A DNA stretch of 64,000 bases from positions 58,669-122,668 of the forward strand of contig CAYTIL010000025.1 of NCBI GenBank assembly GCA_964437985.1, given 5' to 3'. The translations under genes and the position numbers were made by a program. Shown piece by piece: positions 169 through 61,884 of this stretch. The notes under the pieces are model-generated. The model was not told where the DNA came from. It did no database searches and saw only the letters and a list, made by a program, of their open reading frames with translations. Position 1 is the stretch's first letter; the number at the start of each line of letters is the position of its first letter. This DNA comes from an uncultured Acidobacteriaceae bacterium. Lineage in GTDB: Bacteria > Acidobacteriota > Terriglobia > Terriglobales > Acidobacteriaceae.

Positions 169-1293
169 TTACCCGTCGCCGCCGCGGTAGAGGCGCCAGG
201 GCACGTCGCAGAGATTCTCGCCTTCGGTCTTGCCCACGCGGAAGGTGTCCTGGGTGTAGAGGCAGACCTTACCGTCCTGGTCCACCACCTGGGGATGGAC
301 GGAGAGCACCATGTTCTCGCGCAGCACCACGTCGCTGTGCGCGCCCACCGCGGGATACTCCAGCATGGTGGTGCCGATGGCGTGACCGGAAAGATGGCCG
401 AGCGAGAAACCGTACTCTTTAAAGACGTCGGTAATCGCGCGGTGGACGCTGGAGGCGAGTTCGCCTTCGCGCAGACGCTTGCGTGCCTCTTCCATGGCGA
501 TGGGGTAGCCCTGCTTCATGCGCTCGGTGACAGGATCCAGCTTGCCCTGAATGATGGCGCGGGAAAATTCCACCCAGTAGCCTTCGGCGTTGGTGATCTC
601 CAGCGAGTAGAGCATGAGGTCGTCAGCGCTCACGCGCCGGTGTCCCGGAACTTTGAAGGAAGCTTCGGCGGTGCCGTGCGTGCCCGAGAGCACGATGTTC
701 ATCATGCGCGGGCCGGCGCCGCGCGCGAAGTAGACCTCGACCGCCGGAGCCAGGATTTCCGCCTCGGTCTTGCCGGGAGCGTAGCTGCCCAGCAGCGCGC
801 GGAAACCCTCGACCACGATGTCCATGGCCTCGCGGACTTCCTTCATCTCCTCTTCGCTCTTCACGGCGCGCGCCATGTCGAAGGCGAAGTCCAAATCCAC
901 CAGCTCCAGGCCGGCGGCCACCAGCGCTTGATAGTCCACCACTGCCATCACGTGCTTGAGGCCGTAGACGCCCAGGCGCTTCCACTTTGTTTCGCGCGCG
1001 CGCTCGGCAATCCACTGCCCCGGAACCGCGGGCCAGACGTGGTCGCGCACCCAGGGCTTGGATTTGTCGCCGATCCAGCGCGCTTCCGCGGGAAACACCA
1101 GCGTCAGTTCGCCCTCCGGAGGCAGGAGCACGTAGGCGTAGCGGTGGACAATCTCGAATCCGGAAACGTAGCGAACCGCTCCCTCAAAACCGGAATACTG
1201 ATTGCCGCACACCAGCAGCGCGTCCACTTTCTCCGCCTGCATGGCGGCGCGGATGGCGGCGTAGCGGCGGGAGATTTCCTGCGGCGAGGGCAT
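169..1293 (-). CDS. M24 family metallopeptidase (Xaa-Pro aminopeptidase/creatinase-like)
   Basis: 374 aa ORF with a creatinase/prolidase N-domain plus the M24 pita-bread catalytic region (HGxGHxxG-like ...SGHAIGTTMLEYP). The long antisense ORF 295..1344 has no recognisable domain. Confidence 0.85.
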   Translation of the reverse strand: MPSPQEISRRYAAIRAAMQAEKVDALLVCGNQYSGFEGAVRYVSGFEIVHRYAYVLLPPEGELTLVFPAEARWIGDKSKPWVRDHVWPAVPGQWIAERARETKWKRLGVYGLKHVMAVVDYQALVAAGLELVDLDFAFDMARAVKSEEEMKEVREAMDIVVEGFRALLGSYAPGKTEAEILAPAVEVYFARGAGPRMMNIVLSGTHGTAEASFKVPGHRRVSADDLMLYSLEITNAEGYWVEFSRAIIQGKLDPVTERMKQGYPIAMEEARKRLREGELASSVHRAITDVFKEYGFSLGHLSGHAIGTTMLEYPAVGAHSDVVLRENMVLSVHPQVVDQDGKVCLYTQDTFRVGKTEGENLCDVPWRLYRGGDG

Positions 1294-1294
1294 G

Positions 1295-2551
1295 CTACTT
1301 CGCTCCGCATAATTCAGCGGCGGTCAGCGCGTAGATCTTGGTGATCTCCAGCAGCGTCTCGATGCGGACTTTCTCGCCTTCCTTGTCGCGCGGGCCGCTG
1401 GAAGGACCGTAGTTCACCGTGGGAACGCCGTAACGAGTGAGCACGGAGGCATCCGAGGACCAGAGCACGGTGTCGCGTTTGGGCGCTGCGCCGGTGATCC
1501 GGCGATGTTGTTTCTCGATGGCCTTCACCATCTCGTGGTCGGGAGCAATTTCGGCCCCGGGGACGGAAACGTAGGTCTCAAACTCCAGGCCGTAGCCGGG
1601 GAAACGCTTCTCCAGGTCAAGGAAAAGCGCCTTGAGTTCGTGACGCGCGTGGTTCATGGGCAGGGTGGGTGGAACGCGCACGTCAAGATAAAGGTCGGTG
1701 CGCTCGGGAGTACGGCTGGCGCGCCAAGGGTGTCCGCCGCGGATGCCGCCCAGGTTCACGAATCCCTGCTTGTTGCCGTAAGCGGTCTTGGCCTGCCAGG
1801 ACGGAATCCACTTGAGGATTTGCGCGATCACGTCGTGCATGCGGCGCAGCGAGTTCTCTGCTTCGCGGCCGGGGCCGAAGGCGGTGTGAACGTACAGCCC
1901 GCGCGTGGAGATGCGCACCCACAGCGAACCATAGTGGCCGAGGACGACTTGCATGTCCGTGGGTTCGCCCAGAATGCACATGTCAGGCACAGTGCCGTGA
2001 TTCACCAGGTAATGCGTGCCGCAGCCGTATCCGCGAAACTCCTTGCCGGTGAACTCACCCACTTGCGTCTTCTCGATTTCGCCGGCGACGGCGGCGATGA
2101 TCACGTCGCCTTCCAGCTTGACGCCGGCGGCCTGCAGCGCGCGCACCGCCTGCGTGTAGCAGACCAGCGCGCCCTTCATGTTGTAGATGCCGAGACCGTA
2201 GATCATGCCGTTCTTGACCACGGCGTGGGGCTTGTAGCCCAGCCCGGTGAGGAAAGGTTCGCGGCCGCTGTTGGAGGTATCCATGTGGCCGTTGAACATC
2301 AGGCAACGGCCGTTGCCTGAGCCGTTCAGCCGACCCACTACATTGGCGCGGCCTTCCTCCACTTCCTGCCATGCGACCTCCAGTCCCATCTGTTCGAAGG
2401 CGGCACGCATGTAGTTGGCCATCTCCAGTTCGGAGCCGGTGGGACTGGGGATGTTGACCACGTCGCAACACATCTCCACCAGAGCGCGCTCGTCAATGTG
2501 CGCGAGGATGCGGTCGGCGAGGGAGGACTTGGGTTTGGGGCGCTTGGACAT
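1295..2551 (-). CDS. M20 family peptidase (ArgE/DapE/acetylornithine deacetylase-like)
   Basis: 418 aa ORF with an M20 metal-binding core (…FNGHMDT…, …GEP(T/S)…), abutting the upstream M24 gene on the same strand. Confidence 0.85.
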   Translation of the reverse strand: MSKRPKPKSSLADRILAHIDERALVEMCCDVVNIPSPTGSELEMANYMRAAFEQMGLEVAWQEVEEGRANVVGRLNGSGNGRCLMFNGHMDTSNSGREPFLTGLGYKPHAVVKNGMIYGLGIYNMKGALVCYTQAVRALQAAGVKLEGDVIIAAVAGEIEKTQVGEFTGKEFRGYGCGTHYLVNHGTVPDMCILGEPTDMQVVLGHYGSLWVRISTRGLYVHTAFGPGREAENSLRRMHDVIAQILKWIPSWQAKTAYGNKQGFVNLGGIRGGHPWRASRTPERTDLYLDVRVPPTLPMNHARHELKALFLDLEKRFPGYGLEFETYVSVPGAEIAPDHEMVKAIEKQHRRITGAAPKRDTVLWSSDASVLTRYGVPTVNYGPSSGPRDKEGEKVRIETLLEITKIYALTAAELCGAK

Positions 2552-2593
2552 GGGCAGATGAGAATCTATATGAGGAGCAGCATTCCATCAACC

Positions 2594-2748
2594 GTCGTCA
2601 TCCTGAGCCCGCCGCAGGCGGGCGAAGGACCTTACGACCGCCGGCCGTGCCGTTGCCGTCCACAGGCAGAATGCTTCAGGCCCGTCATCCTGAGCCCGCC
2701 GCAGGCGGGCGAAGGACCTTACGACTGCCGGCCGTGCCGTTGCCGTCC
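2594..2748 (+). repeat. Two tandem copies (2594..2660, 2683..2748) of the family C element gtcatcctgagcccgccgcaggcgggcgaaggaccttacgac(y)gccggccgtgccgttgccgtcc
   Basis: Near-identical 66 nt units read directly, 89 nt apart, each with an internal hairpin gcccgcc-gcag-gcgggc. They sit immediately 3' of the GIY-YIG ORF, which ends at 2755. The ORF-track entries 2498..2908 and 2647..3090 are translations of these repeats. Confidence 0.8.
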
Positions 2749-2754
2749 GCAGGA

Positions 2755-3063
2755 TTACTTCTTGCGCCGCGCAACCGGTCGAACGTACCAGCCTGTACTG
2801 AGGTCACGCCACTTCGGGTTTACGGATTCGATCAGCGCGATCTTGCGCTCGCGGCGCCAGCCCTTGAGTTCCTTCTCGCGGTCAATGGCGCTCAGCATGC
2901 TGGCATAACGCTCGAAATAGACCAGCTTGTTCGTCTGGTACTTGGCGACGAAGCCCTTGGGCTCAAACTTGTGCTGCCAGACCCGCACCTCCAAATTGCC
3001 GGTGACGCCGAGGTAAAGCACGCGACGCTGGCTGGCCATGATGTAGGCGCAAGAGAACGCCAT
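2755..3063 (-). CDS. GIY-YIG nuclease family protein (small stand-alone YhbQ/UPF0213-like)
   Basis: 102 aa ORF. N-terminal CAYIMASQRRVLYLGVTGNLEVRVWQHK fits the GIY-(x10)-YIG/ LY.GvT.NL.rR..eH motif of the GIY-YIG superfamily. Confidence 0.8.
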   Translation of the reverse strand: MAFSCAYIMASQRRVLYLGVTGNLEVRVWQHKFEPKGFVAKYQTNKLVYFERYASMLSAIDREKELKGWRRERKIALIESVNPKWRDLSTGWYVRPVARRKK

Positions 3064-3100
3064 TGGGTGGTCCTTTCCACCGCATCGTGAGTCTCAACAG

Positions 3101-3157
3101 TCGTAAGATCCTTCGCTCGCTCCGTCGCTGCGCTCCGTCACGGCTCAGGATGACAAT
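3101..3157 (-). repeat. Family C element in inverted orientation (reverse complement ttgtcatcctgagccgtgacggagcgcagcgacggagcgagcgaaggatcttacga)
   Basis: It shares the conserved ends gtcatcctgagc ... cgaaggatcttacga with the copies at 2594/2683 and differs in the internal stem. It lies 40 nt upstream of the GIY-YIG start, so the gene is bracketed by inverted copies. Confidence 0.75.
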
Positions 3158-3177
3158 CGCCTGTGGAAGAGTGCTGT

Positions 3178-4359
3178 TCAGCTCAGCGTGCGGAAGTCGT
3201 CGGGGAAACTGCACAGCTTTTCGTTGCCGTCGCCGGTGATCCAGAAGTTGTCTTCCAGGCGCAGGCCGCCACCGCCTTGCCAGTAGATGCCGGGCTCGAT
3301 GGCCAGTACCATCCCTTTGCGAATCGTGCCGGTGCCGGCCTGGTGGGCGTAGGGAGGCTCGTGCGCGCGGGCGCCGACGCCGTGACACACCGGATGCGAA
3401 GGCTGGCCGGGATAGCCGCCCTCGGCAATGCGGGCGCGGATGAGGCGGTCGAGTTCGGGGAAGCTGGCGCCGTCGCGCGCGAAGGCCACGGCTTCGTTGA
3501 AGACTTTGAGCAGCAGGTCGAGCAACTGGTTGTACCGTGGCGTGAGCTTTCCCGGACACAAGTTTTTAGTGAGGTCGTTCCAGTAGCCGTCCACGCATAC
3601 CCAGATTTCAAACAGCGTGGGTTCGTTCTGCTGGATGGGGCGGTCGCCCGTGGCGGTGAAGGTTGCGATGCCGGGGCCGGACCACACCAAGGTGAAGGCG
3701 CGGGCCATCTCCACTTTGCCCTGGTAGCCGACGCCGACGCCGTGCACGTAGCCCTCAAACATCGCGCCCACTTCGCTTTCCTTCATGCCCACACGCATGT
3801 TCTGGCGAGTGTGCTCCATGGCCAGCGCCGCCAGTTCGTTGGCCAGGCGCATGCGCTCGATTTCCTGATCGGTCTTGATGGCTCGCGCCTCAATGAGCAA
3901 CGGCATGGCGTCCACTACCTGCCCGGCGACTTTCTCGAAAGCCTGGAAGTAAGGCTGGGTGTACACCGTGGGCTCGCCCACCATGCGGTCGGCGGCTTGC
4001 GAAGAGTTGGTGAGCTCGACGCCGACTTTGTCGGTGAGTCCGCGCTCCTTCAGCACCTGAAGCGCGAGGTCGAGCGCGCGCATGTTGGGCGGACGCGGGT
4101 CGCGCTCGTCGTAGCCTTTGAACAGGCGGATGTCGCGCGTCCAGGAGTTGCGCTCGGCGTCGCCAAGCTGCGGCTCAATGGCGATGAGTGTGGGCTCGCC
4201 TTCGCGCGGAAATACCACCGCATCGTATCCCTTCATGCACCAGTAGTTGGTGAGATAGAGGATGTTGTCGGGCGCGCGGCACACCATGGCCGCGAGGTCG
4301 TGCTGCTTCATCAGCGCGCGCACGCGGGAGAGTTTGGTTTCGTCCTTAGGCCACGGCAT
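3178..4359 (-). CDS. M24 family Xaa-Pro aminopeptidase/dipeptidase
   Basis: 393 aa ORF with an M24 catalytic domain (…HGVGVGYQG…, …GMVLAIEPGIY…). It is a second M24 paralog in the window. Confidence 0.85.
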   Translation of the reverse strand: MPWPKDETKLSRVRALMKQHDLAAMVCRAPDNILYLTNYWCMKGYDAVVFPREGEPTLIAIEPQLGDAERNSWTRDIRLFKGYDERDPRPPNMRALDLALQVLKERGLTDKVGVELTNSSQAADRMVGEPTVYTQPYFQAFEKVAGQVVDAMPLLIEARAIKTDQEIERMRLANELAALAMEHTRQNMRVGMKESEVGAMFEGYVHGVGVGYQGKVEMARAFTLVWSGPGIATFTATGDRPIQQNEPTLFEIWVCVDGYWNDLTKNLCPGKLTPRYNQLLDLLLKVFNEAVAFARDGASFPELDRLIRARIAEGGYPGQPSHPVCHGVGARAHEPPYAHQAGTGTIRKGMVLAIEPGIYWQGGGGLRLEDNFWITGDGNEKLCSFPDDFRTLS

Positions 4360-4363
4360 GATC

Positions 4364-4537
4364 AGGTGTCAGGTGTCGGGTGTCCGCGTAGTTTCAAGTT
4401 TCGAGCTTCACGTTTCAAGAGAAAAAGCAAAACCAAGATCCCTCGACTCGCCCGCCACGGCGGGCTTGCTCGGGATGACAATTACGAAGGTGACGTGCTG
4501 ACGACTGACAACTCACAACCGGCAACTGACAACTTTC
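4364..4537. repeat. Composite repeat block: family D (caggtgtcaggtgtcgggtgtc, 4364..4385), tttcaagtttcgag...tttcaagag, family C copy (4435..4481, inverted), family F ctgacgactgacaactcacaaccggcaactgacaac
   Basis: Read directly. The C copy has reverse complement ttgtcatcccgagcaagcccgccgtggcgggcgagtcgagggatctt. The block lies between the two minus-strand genes at 3178..4359 and 4538..5461. Confidence 0.7.
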
Positions 4538-5461
4538 TCATTTCTTCGTCCACGAAACTTCCCTGCCCTTGATCAGCCGGTAGAGCGCCGTGTGCAAGGG
4601 CGCAGGGACGCCGGCGCGGGCGGCTTCGCGGGCGATGGCGCCGCCCAGGAAGTCCACCTCGGTCGCCTGCCGGTGGCGGACATCATAGAGCATGGAGGGC
4701 GGATGGTTGGTGCGCGCGCCAATCTTGTTCATCTCCCAGGGGTCCTCGTGCAACTCGATGCCGAGAGCGGCGGCCACGGCCTTGCCTTCGTTGATCAGAT
4801 CGTGGAGCAGGTGGCCGAGGTCGGAGAATTGTTCCTCCATCGCCGTCTCCGGACAATGCGGCAAGTCAGCGAGCGCGCACACGCTGTTTACCGACGCGTT
4901 AAAGATGAGCTTGGACCACTGCGCGGGACGAGCGTCCGGGAGTGCTTCCGCCTTCAGGCCGCCGGCGATGATCAGGTCGGCCAGCTCTTTCACCAGCGCG
5001 AAAGGCGTATTCGTCGGCTCGAAGGGTCCCATCCAGGTTGGTGTGTCGAGTTCGTACTGCACGTGGGTGTCGTTGTGACGCGTGCCGCTCATGAAGGTGG
5101 TGCCGCGAATCACGTAGCCGCGGGTGTGTTGCGCGATGACTTCTTCACTGCCCAGCCCGTTCTGCGCGGAAAGCACCGCAGCTTTCTCGAACAAGTGACC
5201 GACGGGAGCAAAGGCCTCGGCGGTTTCTCGCGCCTTGGTGGCCACGATGCCAAAGTCGAACTGCGGGAGGTCGGCGGGGCGCGTTGATGCCTTCAGAGAA
5301 ACCTGAAAATCGTGCGTGCCGCTGACGCGCAGGCCGTGCTCATTGAGAGCGCGGGCATGATCTTCGCGGCGGACAAGGGCCCAGACTTCGGCCACGCGCG
5401 CCAAGTGCGCAGCGTACAGGCTGCCGATGGAGCCACAGCCGATGATGCAGATGCGTTTCAT
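4538..5461 (-). CDS. panE: 2-dehydropantoate 2-reductase (ketopantoate reductase)
   Basis: 307 aa ORF with N-terminal Rossmann motif IGCGSIGSLYA and the ApbA/PanE C-terminal domain. Confidence 0.8.
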   Translation of the reverse strand: MKRICIIGCGSIGSLYAAHLARVAEVWALVRREDHARALNEHGLRVSGTHDFQVSLKASTRPADLPQFDFGIVATKARETAEAFAPVGHLFEKAAVLSAQNGLGSEEVIAQHTRGYVIRGTTFMSGTRHNDTHVQYELDTPTWMGPFEPTNTPFALVKELADLIIAGGLKAEALPDARPAQWSKLIFNASVNSVCALADLPHCPETAMEEQFSDLGHLLHDLINEGKAVAAALGIELHEDPWEMNKIGARTNHPPSMLYDVRHRQATEVDFLGGAIAREAARAGVPAPLHTALYRLIKGREVSWTKK

Positions 5462-15126: not shown

Positions 15127-15136
15127 GTTGCCCCGC

Positions 15137-15163
15137 GTAGCCCGGCCGCCCTCGGCCGGGTAC
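15137..15163. repeat. REP-like family B: gtagcccggccgccctcggccgggtac
   Basis: GTAG head plus the palindrome cccggccg…cggccggg. It lies directly after the LLM stop and 6 nt before the next ORF. Confidence 0.65.
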
Positions 15164-23691: not shown

Positions 23692-23708
23692 GTTCCTTGC
23701 TGCAAGGT

Positions 23709-23785
23709 GTAGCCCGGCCGCCCCCGGCCGGGCCGCACCATCCTGCCGGTGTAAGGCCGTGTGGGGCCGGGTCTGCGACCCGGCC
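23709..23785. repeat. REP-like family B (gtagcccggccgcccccggccgggc, 23709..23733) plus a second hairpin ggccgggtctgcgacccggcc (23765..23785)
   Basis: Read directly. It lies between the ACT gene stop and the convergent minus-strand gene that ends at 23804. Confidence 0.65.
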
Positions 23786-25091: not shown

Positions 25092-25127
25092 CGGCCTTTT
25101 GCCTTTTTTACTTTTTACTTTTGCCTT

Positions 25128-25886
25128 TCACTTCCTGCCCCATGGCATCACAAACGCCTTGAACCACTCGGCGGCGGCGGTGAGCTTGTATTGTTGGATG
25201 GCGCCGGCCGGGTCCACGTGTTTGGGGCAGACGCGGGTGCACTCACCCACGAACGTGCAACCCCAGATGCCCTCATGGTCGCTCAGTTCCTCCAGGCGTT
25301 CGTGGGCGCCCTGGTCGCGCGAATCCTTGTTATAACGCTGCGCCAGCGCCAGCGCCGCCGGCCCGATGAATTGCGCGTCCAGCCCGACGACCGGACACGC
25401 GGAGTAGCACAGCATGCAGTTGATGCACATGGAGAACTGCTTGTAGGTCTCGAGCTGCTCGGGCGTCTGCAGGTATTCGCCTTCGGCCAGCGGTTTCTCC
25501 TGCTTGCGGATCAGCCACGGCTTGGCCCGGCGGAGCTTGGAGACGAAGTCGGCAACATCAGTCACCAGATCGCGAACCACGGGGAAGAAGCGCAGGGGCT
25601 CCACGCGCACCACGTTCTTCTTCTGGTAGTGAGAGAGAAAGGTGGCGCAGGTGAGCTTGGGCTCGCCGTCCACCATCATGCCGCAGGATCCGCAGATGCC
25701 CATGCGGCACGACCAGCGGTAGGAAAGCGTGCCATCGACGCGGTCTTTGATGTAGTTGAGTGCGTCCAGCACCACCCATTCTTTGCGATAGGGAACCTCG
25801 AAGCGCTCAAAGCGCGGTTCGGCGTCGCGCTCCGGTGAGTAGCGCGCGATTTCGACCAGGATGGTATCGGAAGTTCGGACGGGCAT
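25128..25886 (-). CDS. frdB: Succinate dehydrogenase/fumarate reductase iron-sulfur subunit
   Basis: It has a 2Fe-2S region ([15 protein letters not shown]) and 4Fe-4S/3Fe-4S regions ([25 protein letters not shown]). The start was taken at the ATG at 25886 ([19 protein letters not shown]) rather than the TTG-extended track start 25910. Confidence 0.9.
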
Positions 25887-30940: not shown

Positions 30941-31025
30941 GTTACATCTGGTGACGTGGTCATCTGGTCAGGTGGTCATCTGAGGTTTTGAAGATGACCA
31001 GATGACTCGATGACCACATGACAAC
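30941..31025. repeat. Complex palindromic region: catctggtgacgtggtcatctggtcaggtggtcatctgagg-ttttg-aagatgaccagatgactcgatgaccacatgacaacatgg
   Basis: Tandem ggtcatctg units on the left are mirrored by cagatgacc units on the right around a tttt centre. It lies between the FAD-oxidoreductase stop and the KASIII-HDO start. Confidence 0.6.
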
Positions 31026-36663: not shown

Positions 36664-36840
36664 CATTGACGATTGCCAAGTGACGATGGGCGAGCAGTCT
36701 TGTGCCGCGTGCCTAAGGGTAGACGCGGCACGTAAGGTCCTTCGTCCGCCTGCGGCGGACTCGGGATGACGACGTGGAAGGGAGCACGCGAGAAATGCAA
36801 TCGTCAATCGTCAATGATGAAGTCGTCAATTTGACGAGAG
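36664..36840. repeat. Composite repeat block: family E (cattgacgattgccaagtgacgatgg), hairpin gtgccgcgt-gcctaagggtag-acgcggcac, family C copy (36729..36773, inverted), family E (caatcgtcaatcgtcaatgatgaagtcgtcaatttgacga)
   Basis: Read directly. The C copy has reverse complement gtcgtcatcccgagtccgccgcaggcggacgaaggaccttacgtg. This is almost identical, hairpin included, to the copies flanking the GIY-YIG gene 34 kb away. Confidence 0.7.
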
Positions 36841-39292: not shown

Positions 39293-39480
39293 GTGACGAT
39301 TGCAGATTGGCGATTGCAAATTGATGATTGCAAATTGCGCGCGCGGTGGCAGGACTTGTATCAGGGCACGGCTTCAGCCGCGTCGAAAAGGTTGTTTTCG
39401 GACATTGTCATCCCGAGCGAGTCCGACCGAGCCGCCCGCGCAGCGGGCGACGTAGGGAGGACGAGTCGAGGGATCTTGGT
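39293..39480. repeat. Family E variant array (gtgacgattgcagattggcgattgcaaattgatgattgcaaattg, 39293..39337) followed by a family C copy (39406..39480, direct orientation)
   Basis: The C copy is gtcatcccgagcgagtccgaccgagccgcccgcgcagcgggcgacgtagggaggacgagtcgagggatcttgg. The block lies upstream of the hybrid kinase gene. Confidence 0.65.
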
Positions 39481-39542
39481 TTTTTCTATGAGAAGGCTGT
39501 GTGCCGACCCTGCGGCACGCCTGAAGTGCCACTCCTAACGGC

Positions 39543-43237: not shown

Positions 43238-43272
43238 AAATCGTCAATCGTCAATGAAGAAATCGTCAATCG
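43238..43272. repeat. Family E array aaatcgtcaatcgtcaatgaagaaatcgtcaatcg
   Basis: Read directly, about 110 nt upstream of the CRTAC1 start. Confidence 0.6.
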
Positions 43273-44721: not shown

Positions 44722-44789
44722 GAGCGCCTCATTCTAATACGGCAGCGCCGGTGTCTCGCTCAGTGTGGAAGCGGGCGGCCTTGTCCGCG

Positions 44790-53307: not shown

Positions 53308-54681
53308 TCAACAGAACCAGGGCTCGGTGAGATACGGAATGGTGGCGCGCGCCGGGCCCGGCGCCACAGCCGGAAGCGCGGGGAGAGACTGCTGCAGCGC
53401 GCGTCGCGCCAGCTTCCAGACTTCGTAAAATATTGTCCTGCGGCCCCATTCTTTCTCGGCGCCGGCTTCGACCATCGCCGCCACCTCGCGCTGCAGCCGG
53501 TCCACGCGCGGGTGGGGATGCTGCCAGCGATAGCTGAGCGCTGCTTCGTCAAAAGGCCCGATCAGCTCCTGCACTTCTTGCAGCTCGAGCAGGCGCGAGC
53601 CCGCTGGAATCAGCAAGCGCAACATGAGCTGCACCGGCGGAACGTTTTCCACCAGATCGAGATCCGCCAGCGTGCGCAGCAGTTCTTCGTAGCCTTCGAG
53701 CGTGGTCCAGGGATGGAAAGCGACGAACGTAGGCGCCAGCACCAGGCCGGTCTCGCGGAACAGCGAAACCAGGCGGAAGAAATCGGCGCGGGTATGGCCC
53801 TTGTCGAGCAGTGCGAGCACGCGGTCGTCGAGCGACTCGACGGCGGTGGTAACGAAGGCGCAGCCGGTCGAGCGCAGCGCCGACAGATGCCGCGCGTGCT
53901 TCAGCAGGTGTTCGACTTTGATGGTGGCGTCGTAGCTGATTTGCGGATGCTCGCGGTGCAGCGCCTGCACCAGTTCGAGCGCATGGCGCACCCCGTTGAA
54001 GAAGTCGGGATCGCCGAAAGTAATGTGCTGGGCCCCGGCAGCCACCTGCCGTCGAATGTCTTCCAGCACCACTTCCCGCTCCACAATGCGGAACTTGCCG
54101 CCGTAAACCGGCACGATGGGACAGTGGCGGCACAGATGCTTGCACCCGCGGCTGGCCTCGGTGTAGCCCACGATGCGCTCGGTGCCGTCGGGCAGCACTA
54201 GATGCGAATAACGTTTGAGTTCCGGAAGGCCGCTGCGATCGGGCACGCGAAACTGTTGCCGCTCCAGGCTGATCTCGGGCTCGCGCTGCGGCTGCGGTCC
54301 GTTCCCTCCTCCTGCCGCGCGCAATCTTTGCGCCAGGGCCAGCAGGCCGGACTCGAACTCTCCTCCCAGAATGGTGGCCACGCCCGACCGCCGCAACATT
54401 TCAGCGTTCATGGGCGCATAGAGTCCGTAGGCGCACAGGTGCGCCGCCGGATTCAGCGCTCCCGCCCGAGCGATGACGCGCAGGGCAATGCGCGTGGCGG
54501 TGTGCATGGGCAGGTAGAAAGCGATCAGACTGGCGTCGCGCACCGCCGGTTCGTTCAGCGGCGTTTGCGAAAGGTCGAGGACGCCGGCGTAGAAACCATC
54601 TTCCCGCAGCCAGGCCGCCGGCGACGCCAGGCCGAAGGGCTGGTGGCCGGATTCGTAGGTGGAGACAAGAAGAACATTCAT
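53308..54681 (-). CDS. B12-binding domain-containing radical SAM protein
   Basis: N-terminal B12-binding Rossmann-like region. Radical SAM motif CKHLCRHCP (CxxxCxxC). The start was taken at the ATG MNVLLVSTYE rather than the track start 54726. Confidence 0.8.
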   Translation of the reverse strand: MNVLLVSTYESGHQPFGLASPAAWLREDGFYAGVLDLSQTPLNEPAVRDASLIAFYLPMHTATRIALRVIARAGALNPAAHLCAYGLYAPMNAEMLRRSGVATILGGEFESGLLALAQRLRAAGGGNGPQPQREPEISLERQQFRVPDRSGLPELKRYSHLVLPDGTERIVGYTEASRGCKHLCRHCPIVPVYGGKFRIVEREVVLEDIRRQVAAGAQHITFGDPDFFNGVRHALELVQALHREHPQISYDATIKVEHLLKHARHLSALRSTGCAFVTTAVESLDDRVLALLDKGHTRADFFRLVSLFRETGLVLAPTFVAFHPWTTLEGYEELLRTLADLDLVENVPPVQLMLRLLIPAGSRLLELQEVQELIGPFDEAALSYRWQHPHPRVDRLQREVAAMVEAGAEKEWGRRTIFYEVWKLARRALQQSLPALPAVAPGPARATIPYLTEPWFC

Positions 54682-54726
54682 GGCGCAGGCCGCATTTCTC
54701 CATTCCGAGCAAGGCTGAGGGAGCAA

Positions 54727-54838
54727 AGCGATCCGAGGGCGAGTCGAGGAAGCTCTACCCCAAACACAGATGCCCGAGGTAGGGGTTCCTCGACTCGCGC
54801 TTCCTCACTGCGTTCGGTCGCGCTCGCTCGGAATCACA
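54727..54838. repeat. Degenerate family C pair: a partial direct copy (…atccgagggcgagtcgaggaag) and a full inverted copy (reverse complement ttgtgattccgagcgagcgcgaccgaacgcagtgaggaagcgcgagtcgaggaacc)
   Basis: The 13 bp perfect stem gcgagtcgaggaa/ttcctcgactcgc joins the two copies. The block lies between the radical SAM start and the yggX stop. Confidence 0.55.
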
Positions 54839-57913: not shown

Positions 57914-57980
57914 CCCTGGGACACCTCGGCGAACCGTAACTCTATGCGGGGGTGACGAGGAAGTCAATATTCAGGGCTGT

Positions 57981-58008
57981 GTAGCCCGGCCGCCCCCGGC
58001 CGGGCTAG
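57981..58008. repeat. REP-like family B: gtagcccggccgcccccggccgggctag
   Basis: Third copy of the GTAG + cccggccg/cggccggg palindrome, in the divergent region between nfeD and the cysteine-dioxygenase-like gene. Confidence 0.65.
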
Positions 58009-58645: not shown

Positions 58646-58817
58646 TTCACCACGGAGACACGGAGGCACGGAGAACAGCAAGTCAAAAATCAAAAGGCAA
58701 AAGGGAAAAGGGAAAAGGCAACAAGCCGCTGGCAATACGCCATGAACGAGGCAAGAGGTCTTCTCTTTTGCCTTTTGATTTTTTACTCTTGCCTTCTCCG
58801 TGCCTCCGTGCCTCCGT
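58646..58817. repeat. Long imperfect inverted repeat (~55 nt arms) around a ~57 nt centre
   Basis: Left arm ttcaccacggagacacggaggcacggagaacagcaagtcaaaaatcaaaaggcaaaaggg. The right arm reverse complement is attcaccacggaggcacggagaaggcaagagtaaaaaatcaaaaggcaaaagag. It is A-rich, which is atypical for this genome, and lies between the CDO-like gene and the ABC ATPase gene. Confidence 0.65.
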
Positions 58818-58875
58818 GGTGAATCGTGACTCGCGAACTTTTGCCCCCGTTTCTGCGTAGTACCATCAGATAGCT

Positions 58876-60963: not shown

Positions 60964-61884
60964 ATGTCAAAAAATCGAAGGATAACTGCGGTCTCCAACC
61001 CTCTGATGTCGTTCTTGTCATTTTGCATTTTTACTTTTGCATTGTGCCTTGCTCCTTCCGCCCACGCCGCCTCCAGCGCCGAATGTAAAACGGTGAAGAG
61101 CGCCATCCTCAAGCGCGCGGTGCGCTACTGCGCGCTGCTGCCCGCCGGCTACGCCACCGACAAGACGCGCCGCTTCCCGGTCCTCTATTACCTGCACGGG
61201 CTGGGCGCGGATGAGCAGTCCCTGGTGCGCAGCGGCGGATGGAACCTGGTAGAGAGCCTGCAGGAGGAGAAACGCATCGGAGAATTCGTCCTGATCACGC
61301 CCGACGGCGGCCGCAGCTTCTACATCAACTCCCGCGACGGACGCCTGCGCTACGAAGACTTCTTCCTCCGCGAGTTCCTGCCCGCCATCGAAAAGCGCTA
61401 CCGGGTGCAGGCGGTGCGTGCCGGGCGCGCCGTGGCAGGAACCTCCATGGGCGGCTACGGCGCGCTGCGCCTCGCCTTCAAGTATCCTCAGATCTTTTCC
61501 GCGGCCAGCGCGCACAGCGCCGCGCTCATGGAAAAGCTGCCGCCGGGCGCGGGCGAAACTCCCGGACTGGGAGGCAGCCGCGGCTGGATCCTAGGCGATG
61601 TGTTCGGTTCCCCGTTCGACCAGGCCTTCTACGACCGCAACAGCCCGCTCGCCCTGGCCAAAGCAGGAGCCGGACTGTCGCGCGTGAAGATTTACTTTGA
61701 CTGCGGCCGCGACGACGAGTACGGCTTCGACGCCGGCGCCGAGAAGCTCCATCAGGAGCTGAACTCGCGCCGCATTGCCCACGAATTTCACATCTACCCC
61801 GGCGGACACAGTTGGAGCTACGTGGCCGAGCATCTGGACGAATCGCTGGCGTTCCACTCGCGGGCCTTCGGGCTGACTCGATAG
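60964..61884 (+). CDS. Alpha/beta hydrolase, esterase family (esterase D/putative esterase PF00756-like), secreted
   Basis: Signal peptide …FCIFTFALCLAPSAHA. The GTSMGGYGAL nucleophile elbow and the FPVLYYLHG motif are present. The start is uncertain (60964 or 61006). Confidence 0.7.
   Translation: MSKNRRITAVSNPLMSFLSFCIFTFALCLAPSAHAASSAECKTVKSAILKRAVRYCALLPAGYATDKTRRFPVLYYLHGLGADEQSLVRSGGWNLVESLQEEKRIGEFVLITPDGGRSFYINSRDGRLRYEDFFLREFLPAIEKRYRVQAVRAGRAVAGTSMGGYGALRLAFKYPQIFSAASAHSAALMEKLPPGAGETPGLGGSRGWILGDVFGSPFDQAFYDRNSPLALAKAGAGLSRVKIYFDCGRDDEYGFDAGAEKLHQELNSRRIAHEFHIYPGGHSWSYVAEHLDESLAFHSRAFGLTR

Follow-up and report, generated by a model that had tools for sequence, protein, structure and literature searches.

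What kind of element is a short intergenic repeat whose ends are conserved while its central hairpin changes from copy to copy? This question is raised by a stretch of 64,000 nucleotides from contig CAYTIL010000025.1 of an uncultured Acidobacteriaceae bacterium. In this stretch (hereafter the 64-kb window), a model that saw the letters alone (the sequence-only reading) had listed eight copies of a repeat named Family C (C1–C8 in Table 1). Our analysis indicates, with a probability of about 0.85, that the Family C elements are SRMs, i.e., the oriented DNA-hairpin partners of an Ssn-family GIY-YIG nuclease that is encoded at 2755–3063(−) between inverted copies of the repeat. The sequence-only reading had overlooked both the adjacent nuclease gene (ssn) and the division of the repeats into two or three tail subtypes.

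Ssn systems were described by Chenal et al. (Nat Commun 2025, PMC11893778) as combinations of a site-specific single-stranded DNA (ssDNA) nuclease with hairpin repeats. In Neisseria, the repeat is the NTS (CGTCATTCCCGCGMAVGCGGGAATCYRG) and the nuclease is SsnA, a GIY-YIG protein of 94 amino acid residues (aa) that belongs to CDD cd10448 (PMC11893778). SsnA binds the NTS solely as ssDNA, and not as double-stranded DNA, as RNA, or in the form of the reverse strand, and the cut is placed a few nucleotides upstream of the repeat (PMC11893778). The three bases upstream of the palindrome (GTC) are critical for cleavage, the C just past the palindrome is critical for binding, and the loop of the NTS is dispensable and can be extended (PMC11893778). 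One effect of the system in N. meningitidis is reduced transformation by DNA that carries the NTS (PMC11893778). Among the ssn homologues found across phyla, 71% were accompanied by at least one SRM and 42% by SRMs on both sides, and ~29% were reported without SRMs (PMC11893778).

The ssn gene of the window and its product

The protein encoded by the window ssn gene has PF01541 as its sole Pfam match, which spans residues 5–74. In a pairwise BLASTP comparison, it was 47% identical (40/86, E 4e-24) to the 94-aa SsnA orthologue of N. gonorrhoeae. Mutation of the catalytic residues of SsnA (Y6, Y17, and E64) abolishes cleavage (PMC11893778), and in the alignment these are matched by Y7, Y17, and E63 of the window protein. 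The published criterion for homology is a tblastn hit with E < 1e-10 over > 75% of the query; here it was applied in the reverse direction and with N. gonorrhoeae instead of N. meningitidis. With the window protein as the query, tblastn returned one site in each of two gonococcal chromosomes, with E 1e-14 and 81–82% coverage, which lies within the published limits for this reverse comparison. The gonococcal site is a 94-aa open reading frame (ORF) located amid 16 NTS copies within 2.6 kb. As a side observation, the PLSDB records NZ_CP119140.1 and NZ_CP119142.1 (locus L161) are 2.17-Mb N. gonorrhoeae chromosomes that are filed as plasmids.

The closest homologue of the window protein is an 88% identical orthologue at the syntenic position in a metagenome-assembled genome (MAG) of the Terriglobales (locus L001). 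The median length of the homologues was 98 aa (n = 80). In the window, the gene is flanked by C3 upstream on its own strand, and by C2 and C1, both inverted, downstream.

Repeats on both sides of ssn homologues

The 80 homologous loci were obtained by scanning one genome per species with the window Ssn protein. They come from Acidobacteriota, Chloroflexota, Planctomycetota, Binatia, Gemmatimonadota, Bacteroidota, Candidate Phyla Radiation (CPR)/Saccharibacteria, and other groups. The repeat-gene-inverted repeat architecture was assessed with a test that assumes the pentamer GTCAT only and covers 200 nt on each side of the gene. GTCAT was present within 200 nt upstream in 57/79 loci, and the inverted pentamer ATGAC within 200 nt downstream in 62/79 loci. 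The heads faced outward on both sides of the ssn homologue in 48 of the 78 loci. The background of GTCAT at the same loci, more than 1 kb away from the gene, was ~0.15 per 200 nt.

The head motif, too, was clustered around the gene. Copies with the tandem G·A step described below (G·A-type copies) were concentrated within 250 nt of the ssn homologues, with + copies upstream and − copies downstream. The loci without the G·A form mostly had other GTCAT-hairpin-ATC forms, such as GTCATGCTGAGCGAAGCGAAGCATC and GTCATCCTGTAAGGATC, and two Saccharibacteria loci carried the form GTCATTCCCGCGTAGGCGGGAATCC. At three loci (L036, L038, and L046), a T-rich tail adjoins the ssn start codon. The homology to gonococcal SsnA, the conserved catalytic residues, and the repeat-gene-inverted repeat architecture together point to the Ssn/SRM system of PMC11893778.

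The eight repeat copies

The refined coordinates of the eight Family C copies (Table 1) were read directly from the sequence at their sites. All eight were found where the sequence-only reading had placed them, or a few bases away, apart from C7, which begins at 54700 and not at 54727. The exact 5′ head GTCATCCYGAGC occurs five times in the window (2597+, 2684+, 3154−, 4479−, and 39407+) compared to 0.06 expected, and none of 100 dinucleotide shuffles of the window gave five exact heads. The common 5′ head that had been proposed for the family is thus exact in five copies; it has diverged in C5 (36770−) and C8 (54837−), with one and two mismatches to GTCATCCYGAGC, respectively, and is degenerate in C7. 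With the exception of C7 and C8, the heads of the window copies read cGTC or tGTC.

A 3′ end shared by all copies, which had also been proposed, did not hold. The end CGARGGAYCTTACGA is found in C1, C2, C3, and C5 only, and C4 and C6 end in GAGTCGAGGGATCTTGGTTTT. The tails of C4 and C6 match at 93% (a complementary match; the two copies lie in opposite orientation). The near-identity of C5 to the copy at 2594 (C1) was confirmed, with a complementary match of 93% over 44 nt. C7 and C8 form an inverted, MITE-like pair with the heads pointing outwards. The window copies are 41–77 nt long, and some of them exceed the published hairpin range of ~20–50 nt. The repeat family is therefore beyond chance but heterogeneous, with two or three tail subtypes.

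Whether the copies are always intergenic was a point raised by the sequence-only reading, and all eight are indeed situated between Pfam-supported genes. The genes around them encode M20 and M24 peptidases, PanE, a hybrid histidine kinase, an FG-GAP/TPR protein, a radical SAM protein, and an Fe(2+)-trafficking protein, and the copies occur in both orientations relative to the adjacent genes. C7 overlaps only the TTG-extended maximal form of the radical SAM ORF 53308–54726 (TTG start at 54726). The ATG at 54682(−) is more likely the start of this gene than the TTG, and this start leaves C7 intergenic. A greedy ORF tiling placed C2 and C4 within antisense or overlapping ORFs, which in DNA as GC-rich as this are probably spurious, and the tiling was set aside.

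A loose scan of the window for GTC followed by any 5-bp palindrome gave chance-level counts and no further copies. The density of 7–8 copies in the 64-kb window compares to two G·A-type copies, and no ssn gene, in 464 kb of unrelated soil-metagenome loci that had been collected with an unrelated histidine-kinase query.

Table 1. Coordinates of the ssn gene, the Family C copies, and the tandem duplication in the window.
Feature	Position	Strand	Description
ssn gene	2755–3063	−	102-aa single-domain GIY-YIG protein, Ssn family; Pfam PF01541, E 1.9e-8
C1	2597–2637	+	Second inverted copy downstream of ssn; ssDNA fold −14.5 kcal/mol, z −3.75
C2	2684–2724	+	Inverted relative to ssn, begins 30 nt past the stop codon; ssDNA fold −12.1 kcal/mol, z −2.82
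C3	3101–3154	−	TTACGA subtype, on the ssn strand, 37 nt upstream of the start codon; long inner helix with nested G·A/G·A steps
C4	4429–4479	−	GAGTCGAGGGATCTTGGTTTT subtype, in the spacer between panE and the M24 peptidase gene
C5	36730–36770	−	TTACG subtype; one basal-stem pair is a C·A mismatch
C6	39407–39483	+	Long form of the TTGGTTTT subtype; antisense to both adjacent genes
C7	54700–54753	+	Degenerate copy with head CCATTCCGAGC and end GAGTCGAGGAAGC; fold not above shuffles
C8	54784–54837	−	Diverged head GTGATTCCGAGC, tail GAGTCGAGGAACC
87-nt tandem duplication	2596–2753		Units 2596–2666 and 2683–2753, 97% identical; one SRM and its 3′ flank per unit

Anatomy and covariation of the hairpins

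The anatomy of the repeat was derived from a set of 167 copies (112 distinct), collected with a pattern that fixes only TSATYCYGA...GARGRA(H)Y. On the GTCAT strand, a non-palindromic head, (T/C)GTC, is followed by a 5-bp basal stem, AT-YCY/RGR-AT. Inside the basal stem lies a tandem G·A/A·G step (5′-GA...GA-3′), and then an inner helix of free sequence and length. The inner helix ranges from a GCGAAGC-type mini-hairpin, as in the 25-nt form, to ~45 nt, and additional G·A/G·A steps are often nested within it. A C stands directly past the palindrome and is followed by a subtype-specific tail (TTACGA or TTGGTTTT). The most frequent form in the set is the 25-mer GTCATTCTGAGCGAAGCGAAGAATC.

Both the d(GCGAAGC) mini-hairpin and tandem sheared G·A pairs in the 5′-Y-GA-R-3′ context are known from the DNA structure literature. 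The minimal 25-nt form GTCATTCTGAGCGAAGCGAAGAATC has exactly GCGAAGC at its tip, and its G·A steps are in the Y-GA-R context on both sides. These are motifs of physical chemistry and not a genetic system, and they are putatively relevant to the repeats described here.

Complementarity of the two variable basal pairs was not imposed by the search pattern, yet these pairs are Watson-Crick in 160/167 copies. The combinations are TCT/AGA (54 copies), TCC/GGA (44), CCT/AGG (33), and CCC/GGG (29). In the alignment of the 27 distinct 25-mers, 94.7% of the cells pair, and the covariation score was 0.444, compared to 0.194 in shuffles. None of the 500 shuffles reached this score, and when the partners were slid as a control, the score was at most 0.142. 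For the 11 distinct 35-mers, the score was 0.530 compared to 0.202 (0/500 shuffles), and both sides had changed in 8 of the 12 pairs. The covariation that the sequence-only reading had predicted is thus present, with a basal stem that is nearly always paired and scores beyond the reach of any shuffle.

The pattern also left several positions free. The base before TCAT is G in 162/167 copies, and the base preceding that G is not G in 161/167, which agrees with the published HGTC. Past the palindrome, where C or T was allowed, C is present in 165/167 copies and is invariant in both the 25-mer and the 35-mer alignments. The positions that are critical in Neisseria biochemistry are therefore the near-invariant free positions of the 167-copy set. 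The natural variability of the inner helix agrees with the reported tolerance of the NTS to loop extension. The inner 2×2 loops, which were not forced by the search, are GA/GA in 19 of 24 cases; the opposite strand would read TC/TC. Together with the asymmetric head and tail, the GA/GA inner loops favour a structure formed by one specific strand as ssDNA over a duplex palindrome. A DNA hairpin recognized by a protein had been one of two possibilities in the sequence-only reading, and it is supported by this SRM anatomy and by the flanked Ssn-family GIY-YIG gene.

Separately, the inner helix of the long copies (3101–3154, 39407–39483, 54784–54837, and those of loci L003 and L004) consists of 2–4-bp Watson-Crick steps split by GA/GA 2×2 loops. 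These inner helices look like a repeatedly nested GA-NN...NN-GA core.

Comparison with the Neisseria system and the published SRM definition

The window system resembles the NTS/dRS3-SsnA system of Neisseria meningitidis and N. gonorrhoeae in its protein, a homologous single-domain GIY-YIG protein of ~94–102 aa with the catalytic residues kept. It also shares the position of the gene between inverted repeats, and the oriented, multi-copy, intergenic hairpins with a (C/T)GTCAT head and an ATC end. In contrast, Watson-Crick pairs make up the whole NTS stem of Neisseria (TTCCCGCG/CGCGGGAA), and its loop is always 3 nt long, whereas in the window copies a tandem G·A step separates the 5-bp basal stem from an inner helix of variable length. 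The gonococcal locus contains no G·A-type copy. The density of repeats differs as well, with 8 copies in 64 kb in the window compared to 16 in 2.6 kb in the gonococcus.

The published SRM search sequence is HGTCWYN(0-2)YYVSBRHN(0-5)WNVSBRGN(0-2)RNCYNB, and NTSvar is CGTCATACTCGGGNNNNNCCCGAGTATC (PMC11893778). Our implementation of the search sequence recovers the consensus as well as genuine gonococcal NTS copies. It found a fitting site in only 7 of the 80 homologous loci, and its sole match in the window, at 44752, is at chance level (1 compared to 0.48 expected). The G·A-type copies share with the published SRMs the HGTC head, the hairpin, the C past the palindrome, and the link to ssn homologues across phyla, but they lie outside the search sequence.

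Several points weigh against the assignment of the Family C elements to the SRMs. The published search sequence misses all 167 G·A-type copies and all Family C copies. The specificity of Ssn proteins varies between homologues, even within Neisseria and Wolbachia (PMC11893778). Sequence searches of NCBIfam, PADLOC, and PDB gave no match for the window Ssn protein, so that its assignment to CDD cd10448 is putative. The outer GA...GA step is invariant in the 167-copy set because the search pattern required GA on both sides, and this invariance is by construction and not an observation. The nearest-neighbour DNA energies of C3, C6, C7, and C8 are not better than those of shuffles, and the nearest-neighbour model gives equal energies for the top and the bottom strand. 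A gene cognate to the TTGGTTTT subtype is absent from the 64-kb window.

As to the folding energies, the end pairing and central hairpin proposed by the sequence-only reading are upheld for the short copies C1 and C2, which fold, and not for the four copies whose energies are no better than those of shuffles. The putative hairpins of these four copies are supported by comparison with the other copies and not by thermodynamics.

The main text of PMC11893778 mentions neither Acidobacteria, nor Bacteroidetes, nor G·A mismatches. Since no G·A-type copy fits the search sequence and the main text is silent on them, the G·A class falls beyond at least the operational definition of the SRMs, and we refer to it as a variant. 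A literature search by 12-mer sequences returned unrelated primer matches only. What remains new is the SRM class with G·A mismatches and a variable helix, the range of phyla in which it occurs, and the presence of two subtypes in a single lineage; otherwise, the system has been known since 2025.

Tail subtypes and possible cognate pairing

Repeats of the TTACGA type flank the window ssn gene and its L001 orthologue. Those of the TTGGTTTT type (C4 and C6) are 82–89% identical to the repeats at L036 and to those that flank a second ssn paralogue (L038) of the MAG to which L001 belongs. C4 in particular is 89% identical to the SRM adjoining L038. Across loci, the upstream and downstream copies of one locus share the basal-stem type in 19 of 24 cases, compared to 6.3 expected. 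The subtype matches would fit cognate enzyme-repeat pairs, judging from these sequence comparisons. Separately, L038 (3001–3040) has a stop after codon 8 relative to its close homologue L036, which indicates either a pseudogene or an assembly error.

A more specific proposal, to which we give even odds, is that the G·A-type repeats are a distinct structural class of Ssn target. Such a target would be read via the short basal stem and the tandem sheared G·A pairs, with an inner helix that is free to vary or expand. The class would have been missed by the published motif and may explain part of the ~29% of ssn homologues that appear to lack SRMs. According to the same proposal, two orthogonal Ssn/SRM pairs, one with the TTACGA and one with the TTGGTTTT tail, would be present in a single genome.

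Proposed mechanism

By analogy with SsnA and the NTS of Neisseria, the hairpin would fold once the GTCAT strand becomes single-stranded, i.e., during replication or repair, or in incoming DNA. The nuclease would bind the stem and the trailing C, and its cut would then fall on that strand, a few nucleotides to the 5′ side of the GTC head. Each repeat would thereby mark its neighbourhood for ssDNA cleavage. From this analogy, we infer that the window protein would bind and cleave ssDNA only, and at this position. Possible roles are the restriction of incoming ssDNA or the control of recombination, as in Neisseria, or a REP/RAYT-like upkeep of the repeat population.

Synteny, turnover, and possible mobility

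The L001 locus is collinear with window positions 175–5059 at ~84% identity, and ssn and the repeats are found at the same position. A shared chromosomal position in two genomes that are ~84% identical argues for vertical inheritance of the ssn unit here. The orthologous copies of the window and L001 have kept their ends and differ in their inner hairpins, and the third copy is in the opposite orientation. The 166-nt spacer between panE and the M24 peptidase gene that contains C4 (within 4360–4542) is missing from L001 (518–534), where ~16 nt separate the panE stop from the M24 start. This spacer also contains two simple-repeat blocks, and the indel is thus not the clean insertion of an element. 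The histidine-kinase scan of metagenomes returned no orthologous spacers for C5 or C6, only paralogues of up to 63% identity. Turnover of the repeats between genomes is evident and may proceed via transposition, gene conversion, or hairpin-templated change. The recent spread that the sequence-only reading derived from the near-identity of C5 and C1 is plausible; the same near-identity fits gene conversion or constraint by the cognate protein equally well, and the ssn locus itself is syntenic in the related MAG.

The repeats could also be regarded as non-autonomous, REPIN- or MITE-like mobile elements, and the SRM-ssn-SRM unit as a replicator resembling an insertion sequence (IS), in which the GIY-YIG protein mainly copies the repeats. 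This explanation overlaps the SRM assignment, and we consider it unlikely. It would account for the inverted copies that bound ssn with their heads outward, for gene-less inverted pairs of 70–140 nt (C7/C8, L073, L017, L024, and L025), and for the 87-nt tandem duplication, as well as for the absence of the C4 spacer from syntenic L001. The authors of PMC11893778 themselves remark on the IS-like NTS-ssnA-NTS architecture and raise the analogy to REP/RAYT and IS200/IS605. However, the unchanged position of the ssn unit in the two genomes fits vertical inheritance and not recent transposition, the C4 indel is a 166-nt composite with simple repeats, and inspection of the copy ends revealed no target-site duplication. 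Moreover, we know of no strand-transfer activity or transposase chemistry in any GIY-YIG protein.

As far as the accounts in PMC3116915 and PMC2817692 go, the likeness to REP/REPIN-RAYT and IS200/IS605 TnpA extends to short GC-rich hairpins that have a conserved 5′ tetranucleotide-like head and are dispersed intergenically. It further extends to the recognition of ssDNA (predicted in the case of the window) by a small nuclease, encoded by a single-copy, vertically inherited gene with inverted copies on both sides (PMC3116915, PMC2817692). Unlike these systems, the window has an enzyme of the GIY-YIG and not the HUH/Y1 type, from which a covalent intermediate is not expected, and a head that reads GTC(AT) and not GTAG or CGTC. 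Membership of Family C in the REP/REPIN-RAYT systems was rejected, as the associated gene is of the GIY-YIG type and the head is GTCAT.

RNA, operator, and chance explanations

It is quite improbable that the repeats act as structured RNA, whether as a cis-regulator in the 5′ untranslated region of ssn, as 3′ stabilizers or terminators, or as small RNAs. In favour of such a function, an ssn promoter located upstream of C3 would entail transcription of C3, the covariation would suit a single-stranded fold of any kind, and T-rich tails adjoin C4 and C6. Tandem G·A steps are frequent in RNA, too. On the other hand, Rfam gave no match at gathering thresholds in the whole window, and none of relevance at E ≤ 10 in the region 2400–4600 or at E ≤ 1 in eight repeat-rich loci. 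Terminator and promoter scans called no site at any copy. The copies lie in both orientations relative to the flanking genes, C6 being antisense to both of its neighbours, and the T-rich tail abuts the ssn start codon at L036, L038, and L046. In Neisseria, SsnA fails to bind its repeat in the form of RNA (PMC11893778). The structured RNA that the sequence-only reading had offered as the other possibility is thus disfavoured by the absence of an Rfam match, the mixed orientation, and the lack of a terminator-like site at the copies.

Even less probable is that the repeats are double-stranded palindromic operators of a dimeric DNA-binding regulator. The basal stem is palindromic, and a symmetric dimer that reads both halves would also yield apparent covariation. 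Yet the element is polar, as there is no symmetry between the GTC head and the C tail, and GA...GA is anti-symmetric where a true palindrome would have GA...TC. The distance between the half-sites varies from 9 to > 50 nt, which is incompatible with a fixed dimer footprint.

Chance similarity, or the decay of unconstrained duplicates (the simple decaying repeats of the sequence-only reading), might be suspected from the degenerate C7 and the stem mismatch in C5, but is already refuted by the counts of five exact 12-mers compared to 0.06 expected, by frequent compensatory changes, and by the same anatomy around homologous genes in many phyla.

Implications

The assignment of the Family C elements to the SRMs turns an anonymous repeat family into an enzyme-plus-target pair, and it accounts at once for their conserved ends, polarity, intergenic position, and covariation. 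It adds an Acidobacteriota example to the Ssn systems. In addition, a large class of targets with G·A mismatches surrounds the homologues in Acidobacteriota, Chloroflexota, Planctomycetota, Bacteroidota, and other groups. Since this class is outside the published search motif, the published association figures (71% and 42%) are probably underestimates. Two cognate subtypes apparently coexist in one lineage. If the G·A class is truly distinct, the clade would offer new, predictable specificities of ssDNA cleavage and a natural demonstration that the loop position tolerates arbitrary extensions. Such specificities would be of practical value, as Ssn enzymes are under development as site-specific ssDNA cutters.

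Other repeats in the window

The window contains other short, quasi-repetitive intergenic families, which often adjoin SRM copies. They include heptamer-like arrays of the CAGTTGCCAGT type and tracts of the TTTGCCTTTTTTACTTTTT type, as well as AATCGTCAATCGTCAATGA (two copies, 94% identical), the inverted pair TTCACCACGGAGACACGGAGGCACGGAGAA (97%), and the palindromic array GGTCATCTG/CAGATGACC. The sites of these families are 40–165; 4385–4420; 4490–4535; 25098–25140, 58766–58808, and 61021–61063; 36799–36830 and 43239–43270; 58646–58675 and 58794–58823; and 30950–31020. The array at 30950–31020 is a different repeat from Family C. A GC-rich, hairpin-like 27-mer, GTGTAGCCCGGCCGCCCCCGGCCGGGC, occurs three times (15135–15161, 23707–23733, and 57979–58005), and two of its copies are 100% identical although they lie 34 kb apart. 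Finally, the 37 nt directly 5′ of C6 (39356–39392) match two sites in another Acidobacteriaceae MAG (L002) at 90%, which indicates a further dispersed repeat family.

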